Shown here in pieces: positions 1,258 to 15,938 of a DNA stretch of 57,999 nt (its first letter is position 1; each line of letters opens with the position of its first letter). The notes beneath the pieces are model-generated. The model did not search any database. It was not told where the DNA came from and saw only the letters and a list, made by a program, of their open reading frames with translations. The stretch is from the IMG/VR virus record IMGVR_UViG_3300047560_001295, positions 1 to 57,999 of that record; one strand, given 5' to 3'. Position numbers and translations under genes: made by a program. Source of the stretch: a virus. Its lineage: Duplodnaviria; Caudoviricetes.

Positions 1258-2492
1258 GCTGTGTAGCTCCCTGAAGAAGTGAACTTAATAATGGTGTTTG
1301 AACCAGAGGTTGTAACCGTCGGGGAACCTGTGGTTATTCCTGAGTAAGCGATTGTTGGTACAGAGAGGATGACGACACCCGAGCCGCCTGAACCTCCGGC
1401 CATGGATGATTGGACAGCTGCCCCACCACCGCCACCTGTGTTCGCTGTTCCATTATTTCCGGCAGTACCGCCGCCGCCACCACTACCGCTACCACCACCA
1501 GAAGCGGTGCCGCCACCGCCGCAATAATAAACCGCAGATCCAGTAATGGAACTTGAAATTCCGACGCCACCGTAAGCAGTTGCCCCCGAACCACCGGCAC
1601 CACCGGCACCGCCACCACCACCACCAGTGCGGTAAGTAACATTGTCCGATGATCCAGCCCCGCCGCTATTGCCTTGTCCACTTGTACCTGAACCTCCAGC
1701 TGACGCGCCTCCATTGGAGCATCCACCACCACCACCAGACCCACCGCTGCCGCCTGCTTGATTGGTTGAACCTGCTCCACCATAGCCTCCAGCTAAAGCG
1801 GTTAAACTCAAGCCTGTTGTGTTATTACCGGGACTTCCATTATTACCATTACCTGCACCGACGCTACCACCAGCACCAACTACAAAAGAATAATTAGTAC
1901 CAACAGAAAGGGTCGATGTCCCAGTCAACAATCCGCCTGCGCCACCCGCACCGCCGGAGCCACTACTATAACTAGCACCACCACCCCCACCAGCCGCGAT
2001 GAGATATGAAATTGAATAAGCTTGCGGGAGATATGTGGCATTCCCGATTGCGACATCAACCCATCCTTGAGTCGCATCAGCATAAGCTAAAGTCACTGAT
2101 GCGCGGACCGCTGAAACAGTCGCAATAGCACCAGAGCCATGGATCTTACTACCGTTCGGATTGATCGTAATGTTATTGGTCGCAGCCGTTCCCGCATAGT
2201 CGAACACATTGATCTGTTGGCCGGGGGTAGGGGATGCAGGGAGTGTAACAGTAACAGCACCTGAGGCCGTATTGACCGGATAGGAATTTCCCGCAACCGC
2301 TGTAAAATTTGCCGTCTGAACCGATTGAAGTAGTAAATTGCCGCCTGACACCCAAGCAGAACCGTTCCACGTTTCAACACTGGCTATGGTACTGTTGTAT
2401 CCTTGTTGTCCCGGAGTTGGAGATGCCGGACGCGTAGCCGTAGTCCAAGTAGCATTTCCAATCCCGTTAGTACCGGAAAGCGTCAGTGTCAT
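1254..2492 (-). CDS. Glycine-rich virion/fibre protein
   Basis: 412 aa with many GGGG runs and C-terminal [10 protein letters not shown]...[12 protein letters not shown], located in the structural operon. Confidence 0.8.
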
Positions 2493-5044
2493 AAGATCAC
2501 CCAGATAGAATTAGCGGCTATAGTCACGGTTACCCCATCAGCGATACTTATTGGCCCGGCTGACATAGCGTTATTGCCGGAGGCTATGGTGCAATTGCTG
2601 GTTATTGTATTCGCGTTAACCACAATACCATTTGAAGCCGTTAATTGAGGTGCTACCAATTCGCCAGTTAATGGTGTGTATTTAAGTTTCGCCAGATTGA
2701 TTTTACTGGTGGAAACAGGCCCAGTTGCTCCAACAAATACTGGATACAGCGCTGTCGCTGTTGAATTGTCATCAGAGACTGTCGAGTATAACCCCGTGGG
2801 TCCGGTCGCCCCGGCTGGGCCAGTCGCGCCAACCGGTCCTGTTGCTCCTGTTAATCCAGTAGGTCCTGTAGCACCAGTAAGCCCAGTAGGTCCAGTCGCA
2901 CCAGCTGGCCCCACAGAACCTGTAAGTCCAGTAGGCCCTGTTGCCCCGGTTAATCCGGTCGCTCCGACTGGGCCAGTCGCGCCGATAGGACCGGTTGCGC
3001 CGATAGGACCGGTTGCTCCAGTTGCGCCAGTAGGCCCAAGCTGCGTGTAAAGAACTTGTTGAACTGAAACTATAACGCCCGGCGCCACCGGCCCAACACT
3101 CGGTGTTACTGTGGGAATACGGATTGCGGTATTGTCCGTTGCCCACATTAACTGAATGTAATCCCCGGCCAATAACTGCAACGTCATCGGTACTGTAACG
3201 ATTACAAATCCCGGAACACCACCATGCGAGTTTGGAACTGATACATCACTACTGCTGTCTGCGATATCTCCGGTCGCTCCAGTATCGTTTTTACGGAACC
3301 ACAGTAACCCATTGTGGATTTGAGTGTCCGTATTTTCGAACATTACGGATGCATTAATCGTATAGATACCGGCGTTTGCAAAAGTAATACGATTACTCGA
3401 CACAATAGAAACACCATTGCTGTTTGGGTCGGTGTTGCTAATGTTTATCGAATAAGCTGTATTTGTTGCTGCTGCCGATTGGTTTGTTGTATCGTAAAAA
3501 GCACCCCAATAACCATACGCACCACCAGCTCCGGTAGGACCCGTAGCCCCGGTGGCGCCCGTAACACCGACTCCAGTTGGACCGGTAACGCCAGTGGGTC
3601 CAGTAGGCCCAGCAATTCCTTGAGGCCCTGTGGCCCCGATAGGGCCTGTGGCTCCAGCCGGCCCGGTGGCTCCGGTTAAACCGGTGGCCCCAGTTAAACC
3701 TGTAGCCCCGACAGGTCCTGTTGCACCAACAGGCCCAGTTGCGCCAACATCTCCCTGAATTCCTTGCGGACCAGTAGCTCCCGTTAATCCGGTTGGCCCG
3801 GTAGCACCAACGTCTCCCTGTGGGCCTGTAGCCCCTGTTAATCCGGTAGGGCCGGTAGCTCCGACGGGACCTTGCGGGCCGGTAGGGCCAGTTGCACCAA
3901 CATCACCCTGTATACCTTGAGGCCCCGTAGCGCCGACAGGGCCTGTTGCACCGGTAGGTCCATCAACACCCTGCGCACCGGATGGGCCAGTCGGGCCGAT
4001 ATCACCTTGCGGACCCGTCGCCCCGGTCGGCCCATCTAATCCAGCCGGGCCAGTAGCTCCAGCTGGCCCAGTAGGCCCGACGATACTACCGACGTCATCC
4101 CACGCTAATCCAGTCCAGACCCAAAGATGACCGGTATCAGAAGTGATATAGCCATCGCCGGGTAGATTTCCGACAGTTGGTAAATCACTAGATGTTGGAA
4201 CTGAACCTTTGATTGTTATTGAAGTCCCTTGTGGGCCGGTAGCGCCCGTAGGCCCTGTGGGGCCGGTCGACCCCGACGGACCTGTTGCACCGGTAGCGCC
4301 TGTTGCACCTGATGGACCAGTCGGGCCTACGTCACCGGCGATTCCGGATGGGCCAGTAGCACCTGCGGGTCCTACGTCTCCTTGTGGGCCAGATGGGCCA
4401 GTAGCCCCGACGGCGCCCTGTAAACCACTAGGCCCAGTAGCTCCAATAGCTCCTTCAGGTCCTGTGGGACCTTGAACCCCGGATGGACCGGTTGCGCCAA
4501 CATCTCCCTGTAAGCCCTGTGGTCCAGTTGCTCCAACATCTCCCTGTGGTCCTGTTGCTCCAACATTACCTTGAATCCCTTGTGGACCGGTTGAACCAGT
4601 TGGCCCAATTTCGCCGATAGGACCCGTAGCGCCGGATGGACCGCTTGGACCAATGGGGCCTGTCGCACCACTGGGACCGGTAGGACCTATCTCACCCTGA
4701 ATCCCACTGGGTCCGGTAGCCCCAGTAGGTCCAGCTGGTCCATCGTTACCCTGCGGGCCGGTCGGACCAGTCGGCCCCGGAATCGTCGAAGCAGGCCCTG
4801 TGGGTCCTCGAACGTTGCCTGCGTCAAAAAGAACCCCATCATTACGCTCGATGTAAAGGTCATCGCCTTCGACGTAAGCATTTTGAATACCAGTTTCCAG
4901 CGCTAAAGCGGCAGAGGCCGCGGCTTGTTCCGCATATACTTTAGCCGCTAGTGCTCCGCCGAGGTCTTCAGCTCCGACAATAACGACAGCGGTTCTATAT
5001 TCTGGGAATACATCGACAGTATAAAGCGGAGTAACTTCAATCAT
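2489..5044 (-). CDS. Collagen-like fibre protein (GPT/GAT repeats)
   Basis: 851 aa with long Gly-X-Y tracts interrupted by globular modules. Confidence 0.9.
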
Positions 5045-6805: not shown

Positions 6806-7414
6806 TTAAATGGTTTCCTTACCAGCATTAGCCATAGCCTGTTCAAAGGTTTCGAATGCTGGAGCTAGGCTTTTCAGAGCGGCTTTCAGTTTCTCGTCGG
6901 TGAGCTTACCTTCGAGACTTTCGGCGGCATGCTCAAGCTCTTCGAACTGAATCTGAAGGTGGGCCAAAAGAGCTCGAAAAGTAGCCACTTCTGAATCGGC
7001 ATCCTTGCTTTTGTAATCCGGAAAAGGGTCTACAAAAGTCTTGATTCTATCTCGATCGACGGGCTGTGTATGCCCATCTGGAAATTCAACATTGTATAGA
7101 TTAGATCCCTGATAGGTCTTGACCTTAATCCTTGTCCCAGCCGGATATGAACCTCCACCGACTTTAGGAACGGTGCGGATAAGCATGGCCACAGTGTCAG
7201 CATCTTTTACACCAAGGCTTTTCAATTCGCCGCGAAGCTGTTTCAGCTTTTCGGCCGTCTTTGCTTTTTCCTGAAGCGGAGCACTGCCAGTGTAAGCGTT
7301 CATCCGGCCTTCGAGGCGTTTGATCTCTGCCTTGACTTGAGAAATACGGTTCTCAGATGAATTAGCATCACGCGCTTTACGAAGACGAAGATGGATGTGG
7401 ACATGCTTAGTCAT
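6806..7414 (-). CDS. Hypothetical modular protein, putative internal virion cargo polyprotein
   Basis: KHVHIH leader and three [KR]DA motifs separating three segments; located in the head module. Confidence 0.6.
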   Translation of the reverse strand: MTKHVHIHLRLRKARDANSSENRISQVKAEIKRLEGRMNAYTGSAPLQEKAKTAEKLKQLRGELKSLGVKDADTVAMLIRTVPKVGGGSYPAGTRIKVKTYQGSNLYNVEFPDGHTQPVDRDRIKTFVDPFPDYKSKDADSEVATFRALLAHLQIQFEELEHAAESLEGKLTDEKLKAALKSLAPAFETFEQAMANAGKETI

Positions 7415-7416
7415 GA

Positions 7417-7635
7417 TTAAACCTTTTTAGAAAGAACTTGCATCATACGCATGTAAATGCCCGGGCCGCGGAAATCTCCACCAATCTTGTAGGCTTCCTG
7501 CTTTACCTTACGGGCAAAAGCTTCGCATTCAGATTTGAGCTGAGCTTCACGGGTCTTTTCATCTGGACTAATAGTACCATCTGGATTTGCATCCTTTCCC
7601 CGGCCTTTCAGATAAACATGAATGTGCTTTGCCAT
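7417..7635 (-). CDS. Small hypothetical protein with HxHxY leader
   Basis: Likely start [16 protein letters not shown] at 7635, overlapping the upstream TAA. Confidence 0.65.
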   Translation of the reverse strand: MAKHIHVYLKGRGKDANPDGTISPDEKTREAQLKSECEAFARKVKQEAYKIGGDFRGPGIYMRMMQVLSKKV

Positions 7636-7856
7636 TATTCGTCCCCGTAACAATGAGAATTAGCTTCCAGCTCAGCCTGACTCACCTGAGACGGGAGAGT
7701 ATCCAATTTCCCCATTTCATATTCAGGAATTGCGTCATTTGCTCGCTGGGTAGCGTAACCAATAGCCGCCGCCTGCTTCGGGTCTTTCCCGTGCTCAATT
7801 TCGGTGGCGATATTCTTTTGCAGGGCTTCTTCCGAAGCAGACTGAATTAGCGGCAT
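7635..7856 (-). CDS. Small head-module phage protein
   Basis: MPL...[18 protein letters not shown] resembles a recurrent small phage protein; coupled to both neighbours. Confidence 0.65.
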
Positions 7857-8377
7857 TAGAAACTCCCAAGCTGTTCTGAAGCGTTTTTAAGGGCATCCCG
7901 TGCCTTGGTCAGTGCTGCAGTCTGTTCTTTGGTTAAATCGCTAAGCTTTTCCAACAAAGCGCCAAGCTCCAGCTGAGCGGAATTAGCCTTCGCCTTGATA
8001 GAGTCAAGAGCTTGCTTAGCCGGGAAACCGGTTACAGAAGCCGTATCCGGAACACCAACAATCACGGTACCACAAGCCTTACTGTACCAGCTTTCGGCGT
8101 GAGCTCTTGGCATAACTACATTGCCCGGCATATAAGTAACCCGACGATGATGGTCAAGACTAATAGTATAACGCTGAGTGACTTTCGCCACCACTAAATC
8201 TTCAGCCGGACTTTCGGTGGTATCTTCAGAAACGGAATCATCCGTTTCGGTCTCTGGTACAACCGGTTCTTCTGCGGCCGGAACTGGGGTTTCTTCTACG
8301 ATCGGGGCGGAGGTGGCTTCTTCTGCAGGTGCCTGTGCTGGAGCCTGCCACGGGGCGTCTTTCTTAGCCATGTTCAA
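7856..8377 (-). CDS. Hypothetical head-associated protein
   Basis: Acidic Pro/Ala-rich N-terminus and helical C-terminus; lies downstream of the capsid gene. Confidence 0.65.
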
Positions 8378-9117
8378 TCCTCTAGTTTAGGTTTCTTAAT
8401 CATACCGTAGACCCAGCCATCTGGTAAGGGTTCCCCGGCTTTCAGTTGCTTCATCTCGATTCCATCGTTAATAAATCGAGACCCCAGCTTTTTTGCGGAA
8501 GCAGTTGGGAGTTTGGTCCCTGTGTGTGCTTCTCGCATCCGTTCTTTCGTTTCTTCGGAAAACGGTGTTCTTTTCTTTCCCAGTTTAGCCTGTCGAATTT
8601 TCTCATTTCGGGCGGCTATCTGTTCTTGGGTTAAATTCTGATGTGGGTCTATTCCCCGCTTTGCTAAACCAGCCGCTTTAACCTTTTCTGAATTACGCAA
8701 CGATTCACTTAATTTGCGCCTAACTTCTTCTGAATGCGGGATTCCTTTACGATACTGGTTACCGAGGTTTTGACCCCGAAGGCTGGCGGCTATTCGGTCT
8801 CGAACTTCTTGGGTAGGATTGACTAAGCCATCACCACCAATAGTTCCGTTGACCACAGTATCGGCGTAATGCTCAATCCAATACTGTTCGCGTTCTTGCC
8901 AGTTCTCCTCAGAGACTTCCTCAAGAATCAATATCCCCGGACGAATCCCATCGTCCGTTAAACTGTTGAGCCAATGATGACGGTGGCTCTTTCTCTTTTT
9001 CTTCGCCTCGGTCAAATGTTGAATGAGACGAAATTCCGCAGTGTACTGGGTGTATCCGACATAGCGGATCACGTTCGGTTCAATACGCGGATCAAACAAT
9101 CCGTAGATAATCGCCAT
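8374..9117 (-). mobile_element. Free-standing GIY-YIG homing endonuclease with NUMOD3-like repeats
   Basis: IIYGLFDPR...RYVGYT and EREQYWI motifs; repeats HSEEVRRKLSES and FSEETKERMREAH. Confidence 0.85.
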
Positions 9118-9187: not shown

Positions 9188-10294
9188 TTATAACCCATCG
9201 AAGTAGCCCAAAAGTTCCGGGTACACGATTTCCACAGCACCGAGCTTACAGAAGTAAGTGGTCTTGTGGAAAATGGAATCGTACTGTACCGGGGTGCGGT
9301 TCAGCAGGGTCATCGGGAAGCGAACGCGATCCCGTTCCTGCTTGTAAACTACAGCTCGGTCAACAGTACCGGCTACGCCCAGCGTACCGCCTGCACCTGC
9401 ACCGACGAGCCACTTGACCGGCTTGATGTCCAGTTCCTTACCTTCAGAACGGGTAAAGAGGTTGTTCTCAAGGATGTACTTGAGGATGGACACGTTACCA
9501 GCGTTCGAGACTTTCTGGGTAGCGATGTAACCGTACTGAGCCGGCGGAAGCAGGATCTTGTCAGAGATGACAGCCCAACCTGAAGCAGTCCAAGTGCTAA
9601 CGAGCATTTCGTTAACATCAGCGAGGATTTCGTCAGGAGTCTTCTTGGTCCACTGAGAGAAACCGCTGATACCGTCTGGGAGGCTGGTCTGCGTACCGTA
9701 CTGGGCTACCAGCGGGTTGTTGACCAGACCATACAGACCAAGGCTAGTATCACCGATATAAACCTGTTCGTCGATGTCCATCTGATGCTTCAGCTGGAGA
9801 GCTTCAAACTTCTGCTGGTCGATCGGACGGCCGAGCTTTGCAGCTGATTCCAATTCGAAGAGGGTGTAAGCCAGCTCATTACCCCAAGGAGTAAGCGGGT
9901 TTGCAATCTTCGCGATGTCGATAGAAGTGCCGGGAACCTGATTTGATTTACGGCCGATCCATGACTTACCGTTACCCACAGCCTGACCGTCTCCGAGGCC
10001 ACCGGCTGAAGCAAAGCTTGAAACGGTGAAGCTGGAAACGTCGTCAGCAATGGTCACATCGTCACGGAGGTCGATATCTCGGCCCCAAGTGACAGCCGCA
10101 AGCGGCTTGTGAAGGGTAAGATCCAAACGCTCCAGTTCACCGACGAGGAATGCACCAGTTGAGTCAACGGTGCGACCATCGTGGGTCTGGAAATTGGTGC
10201 CGAGCAGTCGGCCCCGTTCGGTGCCGGCCTGATCGATAACCTGCTTGCCAGCGGCATCGAAGGTCATCATATCACGAGTCTTCATTCTTTTCAT
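9188..10294 (-). CDS. Major capsid protein (DUF2184-like)
   Basis: 368 aa with GAFLVGELERLD, YGLVN and TPDEILADVN motifs; follows the protease and decoration genes. Confidence 0.9.
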   Translation of the reverse strand: MKRMKTRDMMTFDAAGKQVIDQAGTERGRLLGTNFQTHDGRTVDSTGAFLVGELERLDLTLHKPLAAVTWGRDIDLRDDVTIADDVSSFTVSSFASAGGLGDGQAVGNGKSWIGRKSNQVPGTSIDIAKIANPLTPWGNELAYTLFELESAAKLGRPIDQQKFEALQLKHQMDIDEQVYIGDTSLGLYGLVNNPLVAQYGTQTSLPDGISGFSQWTKKTPDEILADVNEMLVSTWTASGWAVISDKILLPPAQYGYIATQKVSNAGNVSILKYILENNLFTRSEGKELDIKPVKWLVGAGAGGTLGVAGTVDRAVVYKQERDRVRFPMTLLNRTPVQYDSIFHKTTYFCKLGAVEIVYPELLGYFDGL

Positions 10295-10308: not shown

Positions 10309-10896
10309 TTAGATGTTGAACGCAATTTCAGCGTAGCCGTTGGCGTCAGCGCTGCTGTTCCAGTAAGCGTTGAGCACTTCGATTGTGTTGCCAGCACTAG
10401 CCTGTGCTTCAAAGCCACCCTGTACATGAGAACCCGTTGAGGCTTCATACCATACGTAAACTGGGTTGCCCTTCAGCGGGGTCTGACCTGTGGGAACGGC
10501 GACGATCATAAAGCCGCGGCACATAACGTCCACTTCGCCGGAGACCGGAAGACCAGAAGCACCGATGCCAACAGCACCGAAGTTCTGATTGGTCTGAGCC
10601 TGCTGGAACGGGTACGGACGAACCGTAATACCGTAAAGTGAGATGTTAGCGTCATCCGTGGCGATGATCTTACGGATAGCGTGTGAGGTTGCATCGATAA
10701 CCACAGCCTGACCGAAAGCGGTCGGAGGATTCGTGGTATCCATCAGTGAAGGAAGAATGTCTACCGGATGGGTACGGTTGACATCACCGGGATAGCCAGC
10801 ACCCATGCGGTACTTGAAGGCTACGTCCTTGAACTTTGCTCTTTTCATGTGTTTCACCTTATTTCTTGGAAGAGTAAGACTGCTTGTTAAGCTCAT
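10309..10896 (-). CDS. Capsid decoration/cement protein (likely start MKRAKF)
   Basis: YRMGAGYPGDVNR and YGITVRPYP motifs, ends EIAFNI; sits between protease and capsid. Confidence 0.75.
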   Translation of the reverse strand: MSLTSSLTLPRNKVKHMKRAKFKDVAFKYRMGAGYPGDVNRTHPVDILPSLMDTTNPPTAFGQAVVIDATSHAIRKIIATDDANISLYGITVRPYPFQQAQTNQNFGAVGIGASGLPVSGEVDVMCRGFMIVAVPTGQTPLKGNPVYVWYEASTGSHVQGGFEAQASAGNTIEVLNAYWNSSADANGYAEIAFNI

Positions 10897-12292
10897 TCAG
10901 CTCCGCAAGAGTCATGACCGGCTTTTTGGCCGGACGACCCATGTCAGGAATTGAATCCCGAACCTGACCGCTTGCGTTACTGTTACGCTTAACAGCCGCC
11001 GCAGAACGGAACAGGACTCGAGCTGCATCACAAGTCATCCGACTGGTATCAAGAACCTTGCCATTCATAAGGTCTTCGATAATTGGACGAGTTGCGGCGG
11101 TACCGTAAGCCATATCCAGAGCCTGCTTGCGCAGTTTGCAGATACGCTTTGCGGTAACCACGGGAGCTGCAGCCGAATCAAAAGTAGGAATGCGAATGCC
11201 CGGAGAAAGAATCTCAGCCAGTGCAATCGTATCCTTAAAGCTATCCTTCAGGTAGCGTGAATCGCGAGCCTTGGTGACTTCTTCCTCTGAAACACCTTCA
11301 GGGGCTTCATCCTTGAGGAATTCTTCAAGCTTCTCGCCTTCTTCACCTTCTTCGTCAAGAGTCTCAGCCGCAGGCGGGGTATCCCCAGCAAGCTTAGCTT
11401 CGAGAGCTTCAAGACGCGAACGGAATTCATCATGGTCAGAATCATTGCGTGCGATAAATTCATTGATGTCGTCGTCGGAGAAACCAGTGCGGCCACCGAA
11501 ATCGTCGTCATCCTGTGAACCAGCGTGGATGTGGATATGAGAGCCGCCAAGCTCTTCGTCCAGCATACCAACTCGTTCTTCTTCGGTCAGCGCTTCATCC
11601 TGAGCCATCTCTTCAGCGATTTCGCTGATTTCTTCGGCATCCTTTGCCTTATGAGCCCGGAACAGATAGTCATAGAATCTGCCCAGACCCTTCGTCTTCT
11701 TACTTTTCGCCATTGGTGTAGCCTCTAAGTTAGGTTTCTGGTCTTTGATTGCACATCTTGAACCACAGCGCCCTTGTTCCACAAGAGCAATATGGTTGAT
11801 GATGATATTAGACTGCTTCCCCATACCATCCCCAGTAATTTCGTAATCTGCATCGTATCCGAGGCTGATTTCTCTCTTACCACTCTGGACGGCCTCAATA
11901 CCTTCCGTCGTGGTTATCATTAAGTCCATCAAAAGAAGATCATCCATAGCTCCTTCACCGCGCCGGACATTCAGGGCTACACCGTGGGCTTCACCTTTCC
12001 AATTCGCGGGAGTGACGTCTTCTTCGGGATGGTCATTTGTGACAGGTTTACCAATTGCGCTAGCAATAGTAGCCTGAGAGAAAACGTCTTCCTCATTACG
12101 GAAGATTTTGACAATACCGTCTGGACCCGGCTCGATAGGCGTTTCTTCAGGCCCGTAGATCATCATGCCGGTTCTGGCCACAGGTACATCCCGACACAGC
12201 AAAAAGCCTTCGGGGGTGAGTTCCTGATTCGGCCCGATTTTCTCGACAGTATAGATACTAGCCCTAATCATACTTATCGTTCCAGAATTCAC
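10859..12292 (-). CDS. Prohead protease-scaffold (DUF2213-like)
   Basis: TPEGFL...VARTG, PVTNDHP, EISLGY and NHIALVEQGRCG motifs followed by an acidic scaffold region. Confidence 0.9.
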   Translation of the reverse strand: MNSGTISMIRASIYTVEKIGPNQELTPEGFLLCRDVPVARTGMMIYGPEETPIEPGPDGIVKIFRNEEDVFSQATIASAIGKPVTNDHPEEDVTPANWKGEAHGVALNVRRGEGAMDDLLLMDLMITTTEGIEAVQSGKREISLGYDADYEITGDGMGKQSNIIINHIALVEQGRCGSRCAIKDQKPNLEATPMAKSKKTKGLGRFYDYLFRAHKAKDAEEISEIAEEMAQDEALTEEERVGMLDEELGGSHIHIHAGSQDDDDFGGRTGFSDDDINEFIARNDSDHDEFRSRLEALEAKLAGDTPPAAETLDEEGEEGEKLEEFLKDEAPEGVSEEEVTKARDSRYLKDSFKDTIALAEILSPGIRIPTFDSAAAPVVTAKRICKLRKQALDMAYGTAATRPIIEDLMNGKVLDTSRMTCDAARVLFRSAAAVKRNSNASGQVRDSIPDMGRPAKKPVMTLAELNELNKQSYSSKK

Positions 12293-13272: not shown

Positions 13273-14040
13273 TTAAAGTTCTTCCTCGAGGATAGGTTCT
13301 GGATAACACCGGCAATTTGGGAACATCCCCGCGTGGTACCGATAACCCGGATCAACCTCTGGAGGATCATCCCAAGCAATTATCCTACCGTTAAATTTCT
13401 TATGGCTCGCCCTTACATCCCCGTCTCCTGAGGTTCTCCAGTAATAATGCGTTGCACCCACGTGTTTTGAGCGCGCCATGGTAAGACCTGAAGCCGTTCG
13501 AGCCACTTCTGTGCGGGCGATTAGCTGGGCACGACTTTTAGTAACAGAACCTGTTTCGAGGATTTTTGCCGCTATGCTTGAAGCCCTTTCCCCGGTGGTT
13601 ATCCCTTCAAGCGTCATTTTATGGACCCGTTCAGCCGCTTCAATAGGGAGGCTCTTTATCAAGACTACCTGTTCGGCCATAAATGACCGAAGCGTTTCTC
13701 CAACTGGGGCATCTTGAAGTTCTTTGCGGAGGGATCGATTGATTTGTTTACCTAGACGGGTCCAGTTGTTCTCGTCGATGGATTCAACTCGTTTGACCAT
13801 TTTCTCAGCAGCGCTTTCAGCCCACGGAGTAATGGTTTCACCGTATTGCCTAAGCATGGCTTGAAGTCGGGCTTGCGCTCGCTCCAATTCGTATTGAGTC
13901 ATTTTAATGTTGACCATACCTTTAACCATGTGGTCAATCTGGTTGGTCAGCTTGCGGATGTTTCGAAGATAATCCCGTTCGACCCGGGAGGCTACCGCAT
14001 ACCGTTCTCTTGCCTGACGTTTGAGCTGTCTTTCGTTCAC
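13273..14040 (-). CDS. Head morphogenesis protein (MuF / SPP1 gp7 family)
   Basis: RAQLIARTE, WRTSGDGDVRASH and NCRC motifs. Confidence 0.92.
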   Translation of the reverse strand: MNERQLKRQARERYAVASRVERDYLRNIRKLTNQIDHMVKGMVNIKMTQYELERAQARLQAMLRQYGETITPWAESAAEKMVKRVESIDENNWTRLGKQINRSLRKELQDAPVGETLRSFMAEQVVLIKSLPIEAAERVHKMTLEGITTGERASSIAAKILETGSVTKSRAQLIARTEVARTASGLTMARSKHVGATHYYWRTSGDGDVRASHKKFNGRIIAWDDPPEVDPGYRYHAGMFPNCRCYPEPILEEEL

Positions 14041-15938
14041 AGCTTGTCCGCAAGACCTTTAAGCCTATCGGCAAATCCCGGATACATTTCATATGGGAGC
14101 TCGTCTGGCTTTACCCACAAATGATCGTAATGCTCGTCGCTGAGCTGGGGCTCGAATGGCAATACACCCTTGACCAAGAACAACGTAAACCCATCTTTTG
14201 TATCAAGATACTCAATAGGTGCCTTTGGATCGAGGGTGTATCCGGTTTCTTCACTAAATTCACGGCGAGCACCAGCACGTAAGTCTTCGCCGGCTTCGAC
14301 CCAACCACCGGGACAAGACCAAGTGAACGGACCGGTGGAGGCTAGAGCGGAACGGCGGAGGAGGAGAAGGTAACCGTCTTTATCCACATAAAGGATTCCA
14401 GCCGCTTGCTGTGCACTATCCCTAGCCGGGCCTTTGAACTCAATCATATCTTCCGGTTCATGACCAAGCGGTTCTTCAGGAAGTGGCGGTTCTTCATTCT
14501 CGGCGTCGGTAATGAGTTCATCAGTTACATTGCTGAAAATACCAGTTACGCGGGATTGTTGTTTTAGTTCTTTGAGTGCGGTGCCTCTGTCGATAAGCCC
14601 GGATTCCTCGACACTACTTACTGTGCGCGCCGTGGTCTCTGCAATGGATGCTTTCTCCGTCTCGCTTAACTGCCACAAGCTGTTAAATTCGATGCGGAAG
14701 CCTTCGGGAAGTTCGACGCCTTCAGAGGCTGCTATAGCGCGGTAGACCTTGGTCATTGAAGAACGTAGGTCTTTTTCTTGTTGCTGTTTGATTGTATCGT
14801 AATAATTCCGGAGATCCGTTTCTCCGGTACTAAACCCAGACGGGGACTGGCCGAACAGACGCACTAGCGGGATCTGCAAAGAGCCGGACAATTGCTGGGC
14901 AAACTGGGTAAGTGCTTCAGACAAGCCACCGAATGCAGCGTGGGTATCGGCGCTGACCTCATCCTCGGCATCAAGCAAAGTCATGCCTTCGATACCTTGA
15001 AACCTACGCATCATTTCGACATACTTTGTAAGACCGTTTAGGGCATCTCCGCCCGCAGCCACCACCTGTCGAAGATTCTTGATTTTGTAATTGCGGATGT
15101 AGGACTTATAGACTAATTGGGCGGCACCTGTGGTCGCGGAGTCGAATGCAATCATCCTATCGTAAAGGCGTTCGAGAACACTGAGCCCCCACAGGTTCTC
15201 CATAACGCGTTGCCAATAGGGAAGGCGGATACCTTCTAAACGAATGCAACGACTATAATGAATCTTTTGATTCATTAGCGCAGGTGCCATAGCGGTGACC
15301 CTGTAGTACTTCGGGTTACCCATGTTTGGTCCCATTTCCTGTACAAGGTCATAAAGAGTCGGCTCTACCATCCAACGATCCAGTGGTAGAATGCCTTTGA
15401 ATTGATCTTTGCGAATGGTGTTGAGGCGAAGCGGGGTCGAAAGGTCTTGCCCCTCAACCAACAAAACTCCCAAAGCTCCACCATAAAGGCGAGCCCATTT
15501 AATTGTCTCGTTGACGGACTTCCAGATCCCTAGTGTCACAGCGGCTTCTTCTATTGCCAGCACTTGGCCGGGCTCCATCTCCCCGGTCAGTGATACCCCG
15601 GCTCTGGTCATATCGTCAGCTACAACGTCGACGGCGACGCCGCCAAGCCAACTGCCCCGGTGAATCCATTCCAGCAAGACACGAATGCGGGTGACAGGAT
15701 TAAATCCGTAGGTACTGGATGACATTGCGTTGTCACTACCAATACCGAGATTGTGGGCAAAGTTGACAAAGCTATCCAACGTTTTATCGTTGGATACTTC
15801 GGGGACGTCTTCCCCAGTGATTGCTTGAGAGATTTTCTTAGCGGCGGCATCGGCAACTTCTGCCCGGATACGCTGGTCTTCCTCAAGCTGCTTGTCGACT
15901 ACGCTTTGAATACCGACTCGTTTATTTCTTCGTGACAT
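14037..15938 (-). CDS. Portal protein (DUF1073-like) with a C-terminal Nudix hydrolase domain
   Basis: WARLYGG and IPLVRLFGQSPSG...DLRNYYD portal motifs; complete Nudix box GWVEAGEDLRAGARREFSEETG. Confidence 0.9.
   Translation of the reverse strand: MSRRNKRVGIQSVVDKQLEEDQRIRAEVADAAAKKISQAITGEDVPEVSNDKTLDSFVNFAHNLGIGSDNAMSSSTYGFNPVTRIRVLLEWIHRGSWLGGVAVDVVADDMTRAGVSLTGEMEPGQVLAIEEAAVTLGIWKSVNETIKWARLYGGALGVLLVEGQDLSTPLRLNTIRKDQFKGILPLDRWMVEPTLYDLVQEMGPNMGNPKYYRVTAMAPALMNQKIHYSRCIRLEGIRLPYWQRVMENLWGLSVLERLYDRMIAFDSATTGAAQLVYKSYIRNYKIKNLRQVVAAGGDALNGLTKYVEMMRRFQGIEGMTLLDAEDEVSADTHAAFGGLSEALTQFAQQLSGSLQIPLVRLFGQSPSGFSTGETDLRNYYDTIKQQQEKDLRSSMTKVYRAIAASEGVELPEGFRIEFNSLWQLSETEKASIAETTARTVSSVEESGLIDRGTALKELKQQSRVTGIFSNVTDELITDAENEEPPLPEEPLGHEPEDMIEFKGPARDSAQQAAGILYVDKDGYLLLLRRSALASTGPFTWSCPGGWVEAGEDLRAGARREFSEETGYTLDPKAPIEYLDTKDGFTLFLVKGVLPFEPQLSDEHYDHLWVKPDELPYEMYPGFADRLKGLADKL

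Follow-up and report, generated by a model that had tools for sequence, protein, structure and literature searches.

We report that a small gene of an uncultured myovirus probably encodes a cargo polyprotein that is targeted to the head and cut after aspartate by the prohead protease, an arrangement analogous, not homologous, to the capsid-targeting sequence (CTS) and internal proteins of phage T4. The gene, hereafter the target, lies on the minus strand of IMG/VR record IMGVR_UViG_3300047560_001295. The window that we analysed is this entire virus record, 57,999 bp, a myovirus contig of ~58 kb whose left arm is a minus-strand operon of head, neck and tail genes. The features of the target and of the gene directly upstream are as follows.

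6806..7414, minus strand: whole target gene (leader plus three modules, 202 residues), with an ATG start and its stop codon at 6806-6808.
7364..7414, minus strand: leader, residues 1-17, MTKHVHIHLRLRKARDA, with the HVHIH core at residues 4-8 (nucleotides 7391-7405).
7364..7372, minus strand: junction 1, R15-D16-A17, a [KR]DA motif and the proposed leader-removing cleavage site.
7208..7363, minus strand: module 1, residues 18-69, a helical hairpin (helices 20-40 and 47-66) in the AlphaFold model.
7199..7207, minus strand: junction 2, K70-D71-A72, a [KR]DA motif; predicted local distance difference test (pLDDT) score below 50 at residues 71-75.
7007..7198, minus strand: module 2, residues 73-136, a small beta domain, possibly SH3-like (strands 76-83, 95-101, 107-110 and 116-119 in the AlphaFold model).
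6998..7006, minus strand: junction 3, K137-D138-A139, a [KR]DA motif; pLDDT below 50 at residues 135-145.
6809..6997, minus strand: module 3, residues 140-202, a helical hairpin (helices 141-168 and 173-199) in the AlphaFold model.
7417..7635, minus strand: upstream sister gene, same leader plus one module, 72 residues from ATG (its homologs P0014 and P0016 are also 72 residues long).

A first-pass annotation, made from the sequence alone, had described a leader followed by three segments with KDA boundaries. This layout was borne out. The 202-residue open reading frame (ORF) is real, starts 2 nucleotides past the stop of the upstream gene, and is split by [KR]DA at residues 15-17, 70-72 and 137-139 into modules of 55, 67 and 63 residues. 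Since [KR]D[AS] occurs only 20 times in the 83 ORFs of the window (18,106 residues; 0.11 per 100 residues), ∼0.19 sites would be expected in the target and three are seen (Poisson estimate ∼0.001), which places its junction motif beyond chance. Two plus-strand ORFs overlapping the target (46 and 51 residues) were set aside as short and unsupported.

The sister gene carries the second leader of the window. The automatic ORF list begins it at a TTG (7417-7653, minus strand, 78 residues); because its homologs are 72 residues long and the leader consensus begins there, we place the true start at the ATG at 7635. The two leaders encode the same residues with different codons, and an explanation of the leader as a regulatory sequence acting at the DNA level was therefore rejected. 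A search of all six frames of the window for H[IVL]H[IVLFY][HY] found only three occurrences: the two leaders and the scaffold part of a DUF2213 protein described below.

The AlphaFold model of the target, made from an alignment of eight sequences (mean pLDDT 66; predicted template modelling score, pTM, 0.31), consists of two helical hairpins, one on either side of a four-stranded beta unit (residues 76-119), with no packing between modules. The stretches with pLDDT below 50 (residues 8-16, 71-75 and 135-145) are the three junctions. The segments read in the first-pass annotation as coiled-coil-like, beta-rich and helical correspond to these three units, and its proposal of independent mini-modules on a single leader agrees with the low pTM, the disordered junctions and a model that does not fold as one unit. 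For the middle segment, the beta fold was recovered and the SH3/KOW label found little to sustain it: the best Foldseek row for module 2, taken from the search with the whole-target model, was an SH3b-containing peptidase (3npf, E 0.044, 58 columns), followed by PWWP domains at E ∼0.2, both weak matches. No Foldseek row with the target model reached E <= 0.001. Neither PHROG nor, above cut-off, Pfam assigned the target to a family, and neither search gave a peptidase family. In ESM Atlas, module 3 returned nothing usable and module 2 scored only 0.86, under the 0.9 lead level; a PDB sequence search gave matches only at E > 0.1.

The relatives of the target come from metagenomes (P-numbers denote database relatives, L-numbers IMG/VR loci, and A1 the alignment of leader proteins). 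Neither tblastn with the target nor megablast with 8 kb matched any of 50,697 phage records, and a word-indexed search of 5.8 billion proteins returned the target itself only. When 1.84 billion representatives were scanned in full with HMMER, nine hits came back, namely the query, six leader-bearing relatives and two unrelated proteins, P0007 and P0009, which were dropped as long repeat proteins without the leader. A profile search brought four further leader proteins, and thus ten database relatives. All ten begin M-[AS]-x-[HT]-[IV]-H-x-[HY] and carry a D-[AS]-type site 4-13 residues further on. In A1, M1, H6 and D16 are invariant, and the alignment holds no conserved stretch of 7-10 columns.

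Searches made module by module showed that the modules move independently. Module 1 recurs in seven other leader proteins (P0005, P0006, P0008, P0010, P0011, P0013 and L032; E 1.6e-17 to 2.3e-5), where it is first in P0010 and P0011, second in P0005, P0006, P0013 and L032, and third in P0008, located at residues 21-23, 42, 69-85 or 137 of its host proteins. It is directly preceded by x-D-[AS] in 7/7 of these multi-module homologs and followed by K-D-[AS] in 6/7. Module 2 recurs as the first module of P0012 (residue 30, E 5e-11) and the second of P0015 (residue 84, E 2e-9). For module 3, the sole relative is the homolog at IMG/VR locus L065; none of 51 other leader proteins matched it better than E 0.1.

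The L065 homolog, of 278 residues, is 90% identical to the target across residues 1-198. The target ends in ANAGKETI, whereas the homolog reads ANAGDA..TDA.. and goes on with a fourth module, akin to the final one in P0005. Since this extra module lies past GDA/TDA, the gain or loss of a module took place precisely at a junction. The same locus carries an additional leader gene, of 66 residues, between the two leader genes that adjoin in the window. In a second relative, G001, whose capsid protein is 74% identical to that of the window, a different leader gene of 92 residues occupies the locus of the target; four leader genes were found in the 17 kb of G001 that were read, three of them beyond the target's locus, among neck genes and further. 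More generally, leader proteins are mosaic, because 53 of 62 pairwise local similarities among 67 of them cover only part of the protein. The interchangeability of modules suggested in the first-pass annotation was thus found for modules 1 and 2 and for the added fourth module, and nearly all copies, in varying order, are flanked by x-D-[AS]. That annotation had named two outcomes that would overturn it, folding as a single unit and homologs that are always colinear and lack the KDA junctions. It stands because the target is not one folding unit and its homologs are not always colinear or junction-less.

The leader also recurs beyond these relatives. In IMG/VR, 65 stretches matched a DNA pattern for M-A-x-H-I-H-[IV]-H, several of them two or three times; this yielded 77 matches and 55 distinct ORFs, some of which are short chance hits. 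A looser pattern (M, 1-3 residues, [HNT][IVL]H[IVLMF][HY]) applied to the retrieved loci and the window gave 62 distinct ORFs of at least 50 residues. An aspartate followed by a small residue lies at most 25 residues from the leader in 57 of these; at that site R or K precedes the aspartate in 34 and A follows it in 37. Two ORFs, at L024 and L026, were judged chance hits and left out of later counts (62 reduced to 60).

Leader proteins span 54 to 914 residues and differ widely in what follows the leader. Pfam LPD3 occurs as a single domain in two of them (E 2e-28 and 1e-29), and one other has sub-threshold Pfam matches to GNAT. At L002 (8409-9125, plus strand), an ORF beginning MALHIHYKVRDKE (MALHIHY..) encodes an Alt-like ADP-ribosyltransferase (phrog_3895, 5e-16; phrog_802, 3e-10) and directly follows the portal gene. 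As judged from these family matches, an ADP-ribosyltransferase and LPD3 among the leader proteins would fit delivered effectors.

Some further features were seen in leader proteins. At L027 (1259-1684, plus strand), the first module, between two R/K-D-A sites, resembles ribosome modulation factor (PF04957) below threshold (E 5.6e-4, 20.4 bits vs 27.9). A motif W/F-E/N-E-S/G-K/D-H-P-R-x(3-5)-G-K/Q-F-G-x-G-G (H-[PK]-R..G.F) follows the first junction in 18/60 leader ORFs, including those at L006, L017, L023, L032, L034, L041, L042, L045, L055 and L061, and also L001 133-477; it may be a second conserved element associated with the head or DNA. The ORFs L023 7412-7978 (minus strand), L035 2538-3059 (plus strand) and L041 6436-7077 (plus strand) share a C-terminal D-G-[HN]-H-R-[IV] that looks ParB/Srx-like by eye, and Pfam gave no match there.

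The leader motif and the junction motif both recur in the DUF2213 protein of the window, and sites of the junction type also in its capsid and portal proteins.

10859..12292, minus strand: DUF2213 prohead protease fused to scaffold, 477 residues (Pfam DUF2213, 5.3e-48; PHROG relatives annotated as head maturation protease).
11525-11539, minus strand: internal HIHIH of the DUF2213 protein, residues 252-256 (motif search).
11636-11644, minus strand: K217-D-A of the DUF2213 protein, just past the protease domain (motif search).
9188..10294, minus strand: major capsid protein, with R-D-M at residues 7-9 followed by MTFD (Pfam Major_capside, 8.7e-73).
14037..15938, minus strand: portal protein (Phage_portal_3, residues 92-440) with a C-terminal NUDIX domain (residues 510-619) (Pfam).

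By its predicted fold, DUF2213 is a prohead protease. The model of the domain (pTM 0.72) superposed on T4 gp21 (5jbl) with Z 13.4 and a root-mean-square deviation of 2.4 Å over 141 of 165 residues, the next-best rows being herpesvirus proteases at Z 5-6 (next best 6.2). Foldseek likewise placed three gp21 chains at the top (E 1.7e-3, probability 0.99), and a PDB sequence search with the protein gave 0 matches. H88, S143 and H167 are invariant in seven DUF2213 homologs.

The scaffold part carries the strand motif of the leader. All 18 DUF2213 proteins examined have [IV]H[IV]H at the corresponding alignment position, three of them as x-I-H-I-H-V instead of H-x-H-x-H. Conversely, among the longer contigs, 15 of the ∼60 with the leader pattern, 14 encode DUF2213; the sole contig without it comes from a 19%-complete record, and its pattern hit falls in an ORF of 23 residues. 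The window's DUF2213 protein contains four strict [KR]D[AS] sites, and in DUF2213 scaffold proteins such sites keep their position at three places. One directly follows the protease domain (KAKDA|EE, SRDS|AEE, AKDS|LE and VRDA|QLE across homologs), one immediately precedes the conserved C-terminal domain (KARDS|RYL, KAKDS|AY.) and one is near the C-terminus (VRDS, TRDS). The capsid proteins of Edwardsiella phage vB_EpM_ZHS (ZHS) and L003 have an R-D-x before the conserved (A)[ML]TFD that aligns with the one in the window. In the portal protein, a junction-type R-D-S stands at the boundary between the portal and NUDIX parts, at about residue 505, and a cut there may free the NUDIX domain within the head. 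A complex prediction for the DUF2213 protein with target residues 1-75 returned no answer (score 0.00, without controls) and speaks neither for nor against binding.

We take the leader to be a putative targeting signal because the same motif co-occurs in the protease-scaffold protein. Sharing the phi-H-phi-H strand motif of the DUF2213 scaffold, the leader would co-assemble the precursor into the prohead core. There, the gp21-like prohead protease would cut the [KR]-D-[AS] junctions, probably after Asp. Every known gp21-type enzyme has an acidic residue just before its cut, namely Glu in T4, phiKZ, 201phi2-1 and SPN3US according to the accessible text of PMC5694885, and a cut after Asp is proposed by analogy with that Glu. 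The cuts would remove a leader of 16-17 residues and free three modules of 6-7 kDa, which would remain in the head with the DNA and reach the next host. There they may serve as host-takeover or anti-defence effectors, as the first-pass annotation had supposed.

A bolder version of this proposal is conceivable, and we hold it only tentatively. The leader may be a portable capsid-loading tag that pairs, possibly via bridging metal ions, with the identical strand of the scaffold. The junctions would then form a cassette grammar by which mini-proteins are strung together, swapped and lost, to be released in the head and injected as early counter-defence or takeover factors, an independently evolved and more combinatorial counterpart of the T4 CTS.

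Several results weigh against a head-targeted, protease-cut polyprotein. The junction motif is loose: only 28/60 leader ORFs have a strict [KR]D[AS] in their first 30 residues, the others carrying T/G/Q-D-A, I-D-G, M-D-S and similar, and 5/62 lack any aspartate followed by a small residue within 25 residues of the leader. Internal strict sites are just 2.3-fold enriched in leader proteins (0.256 per 100 residues, vs 0.111 in other ORFs of the same loci), and the capsid-protein site is R-D-[MTH], not D-[AS]. The low pTM of the target model might partly stem from its shallow alignment (eight sequences, mean pLDDT 66), and the three modules match no known family in the Pfam, PHROG, ESM Atlas and PDB sequence searches. 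The L003 homolog belongs to the tail module, where the tail chaperone and tape measure genes flank it. Phage PB1 encodes the same protease family and, in the 18 kb read, has neither HxHxH nor leader genes; the leader system is therefore not general to DUF2213 phages.

Instead of an effector precursor, the target might be an accessory part of the scaffold or core, whose leader and hairpins contribute to building the prohead core and which is cut into peptides that leave or inertly fill the head, as with T4 gp22, gp67 and gp68. HxHxH is, after all, common to leader and scaffold, and module 1 is a helical hairpin whose residues 23-80 match Pfam Phage_scaffold (PF06810) below threshold (E 0.0097, 16.3 bits vs a cut-off of 35). 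In the available text of PMC11456595, a homologous 478-residue protein of phage Pa193 leaves a helix-turn-helix fragment bound inside the capsid, and T4 core proteins are described in that of PMC5694885 as cleaved at many sites. Essential core parts are usually conserved, whereas here the content is highly variable in close relatives such as G001, modules are gained or lost at 90% identity, and enzyme-type cargo (ADP-ribosyltransferase, LPD3) is found among the leader proteins. We consider this explanation unlikely, though worth keeping in mind. Whether the 478-residue putative scaffold of Pa193 is itself cut is left undetermined in that part of PMC11456595; for E217, another structurally related phage, the accessible text says of the first 65 capsid-protein residues, which are unseen, that they 'could be cleaved'.

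That the target is a multi-domain virion protein that stays uncleaved, in the head interior, as decoration or as a neck accessory, with KDA as flexible linkers only, appears improbable. A linker would have no need to keep K/R-D-A, or to reappear directly behind the leader, within the protease-scaffold protein and where the portal and NUDIX parts meet, and the modules shuffle independently. It is true that the gene sits between head and neck genes, that Pa193 virions contain small proteins whose genes lie close to those of the capsid (PMC11456595, available text), and that cleavage of the target is so far our inference. Least credible to us, and very improbable, is a leader that acts as a metal-binding or regulatory His tag on cytoplasmic proteins and accompanies the scaffold motif through shared phage ancestry. 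Alternating His motifs do bind metal in unrelated proteins, as far as the literature available to us goes, and binding of leader to scaffold is likewise inferred. Yet the motif is strictly N-terminal in >60 ORFs, with the junction motif at a short, fixed distance; leader genes lie within the structural operon, on the same strand and translationally coupled; and an Alt-like ADP-ribosyltransferase, a classic type of head-packaged enzyme, has a leader-like N-terminus.

The surroundings of the target are those of a head operon. The minus-strand gene order begins with terminase, portal-NUDIX, a MuF-like protein, an M15 peptidase (endolysin in PHROGs), DUF2213, a cement protein and the major capsid protein. 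It continues with a GIY-YIG homing endonuclease, a 173-residue ORF, a phrog_2423 protein, the 72-residue leader ORF, the target, a DUF4054 adaptor and Neck1, and places the target between the capsid protein and head-tail adaptor genes on the same strand. By capsid protein, the nearest cultured phage is ZHS (55.7% identity), in which ZHS_5 is a leader gene and the scaffold carries HVHIH together with K/R-D-A sites. The homing endonuclease (8374-9117, minus strand; GIY-YIG/NUMOD3) is an insertion that separates the capsid gene from the small head genes, and a similar gene in G001 is placed elsewhere, between leader gene and adaptor (L080 8800-9387). In the 173-residue ORF (7856-8377, minus strand), the C-terminal half resembles by eye the C-terminus of ZHS_14 and a 158-residue G001 ORF at the same position; the ORF begins ..MAKKDA, a junction-type site without the His leader. 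The small phrog_2423 protein (7635-7856, minus strand) resembles PB1 gp20 at its N-terminus and belongs to the small proteins conserved in the head region of these phages. Further along, an 851-residue protein (2489-5044, minus strand) made mostly of collagen-like G-X-Y repeats (GPTGP, GATGP) is presumably a tail fibre.

No description of the leader or of the junction was found in the literature searched, which did not extend to supplementary files, and no paper on the proteomics of vB_EpM_ZHS was found there. The DUF2213 literature searched, in its accessible text, does not deal with cleavage and annotates the family by homology only. Among the matches listed for HIHIH, HVHIH, HIHVH and HxHxH in the accessible literature, none concerns phages.

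In T4 and P1, anti-restriction and host-takeover factors have turned up among the injected proteins, and the T4 CTS has already been used to load foreign proteins into capsids. If our proposal is true, a leader M-x-x-H-phi-H-phi-H followed by [KR]-D-[AS] junctions would mark the head-loaded proteins of an uncultured myovirus group, and small ORFs that are now anonymous could be catalogued as candidate injected proteins. The specificity of the DUF2213 prohead protease family would thereby be defined, and the leader would become a candidate tag with which foreign proteins could be brought into capsids. Should the leader be portable as a tag, it would provide a rule for finding hundreds of injected phage effectors by sequence alone. 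Module gain or loss at junctions between genes that are 90% identical clearly exemplifies arms-race evolution at the level of domains.

Among known systems, the polyvalent proteins (Iyer et al. 2017, PMC5512222) resemble the target in being, in the text available, multi-module and mosaic, with extensive domain shuffling; their genes adjoin virion genes, and delivery together with the DNA has been proposed for them. LPD3, ADP-ribosyltransferase, GNAT-like and, by eye, ParB-like motifs are also found among leader proteins. Polyvalent proteins are described in the same text as large, however, with enzymatic and LPD domains, 2 to 15 per polypeptide, and a proposed processing in cis by a metallopeptidase, whereas the target has 202 residues in three modules, no LPD or enzyme match and no peptidase domain. 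It has instead an N-terminal leader and short junctions proposed to be cut by a protease in trans.

The ejection proteins of the giant phages phiKZ, 201phi2-1 and SPN3US are comparable in their processing. According to the available text of PMC5694885, their N-terminal propeptides are removed by a gp21-like protease at a simple motif, many substrates are multiply cut, and the propeptides are thought to target them into the prohead. Those propeptides differ from our leader in being mostly >100 residues long with no shared short leader, the motif there is A/S/G-x-E, and that text of PMC5694885 reports no cassette-like polyproteins of mini-modules. Effectors fused to portal or MuF proteins represent another route of loading into the head (PMC5512222, available text), to which the window's portal, with its C-terminal NUDIX after R-D-S, is comparable. 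The target, in contrast, is a free-standing gene that relies on its leader and is not fused to a structural protein.

The closest parallel is the CTS of T4. In the available text of PMC3012670, diverse internal defence proteins of T4 share only this sequence, which brings them into the scaffolding core; the internal proteins and Alt have a common capsid-targeting propeptide of 10-20 residues that is removed by gp21 (PMC3012670, PMC5694885, text available of each). As with the CTS, IPI-III and Alt, a short N-terminal propeptide is the sole feature common to otherwise unrelated and variable proteins, and within one phage it is shared by at least the target and its sister ORF at 7417-7635. Here too, a protease of gp21 fold is encoded and an ADP-ribosyltransferase is among the cargo. 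The T4 propeptide ends in the cleavage motif of its protease, a motif found in the scaffold and capsid proteins too; here, [KR]-D-[AS] recurs in the scaffold and R-D-x in the capsid protein, both as putative sites. The residue before the cut would be acidic in each case, Glu in T4, phiKZ and SPN3US and, as proposed here, Asp. The two systems nevertheless lack sequence homology (no PHROG or Pfam match above cut-off and no tblastn match in the 50,697 phage records). The leader here is a phi-H-phi-H strand that copies a motif internal to the scaffold, and the junction is [KR]-D-[AS] rather than the [LI]-x-E of T4. Several cargo modules stand in one polypeptide with internal junctions and cassette shuffling, and the hosts of the system are myoviruses of ∼58 kb with a DUF2213 protease-scaffold fusion. 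Compared with CTS-type head cargo, what is new is the leader, the Asp-based junction and the beads-on-a-string layout of cassettes.

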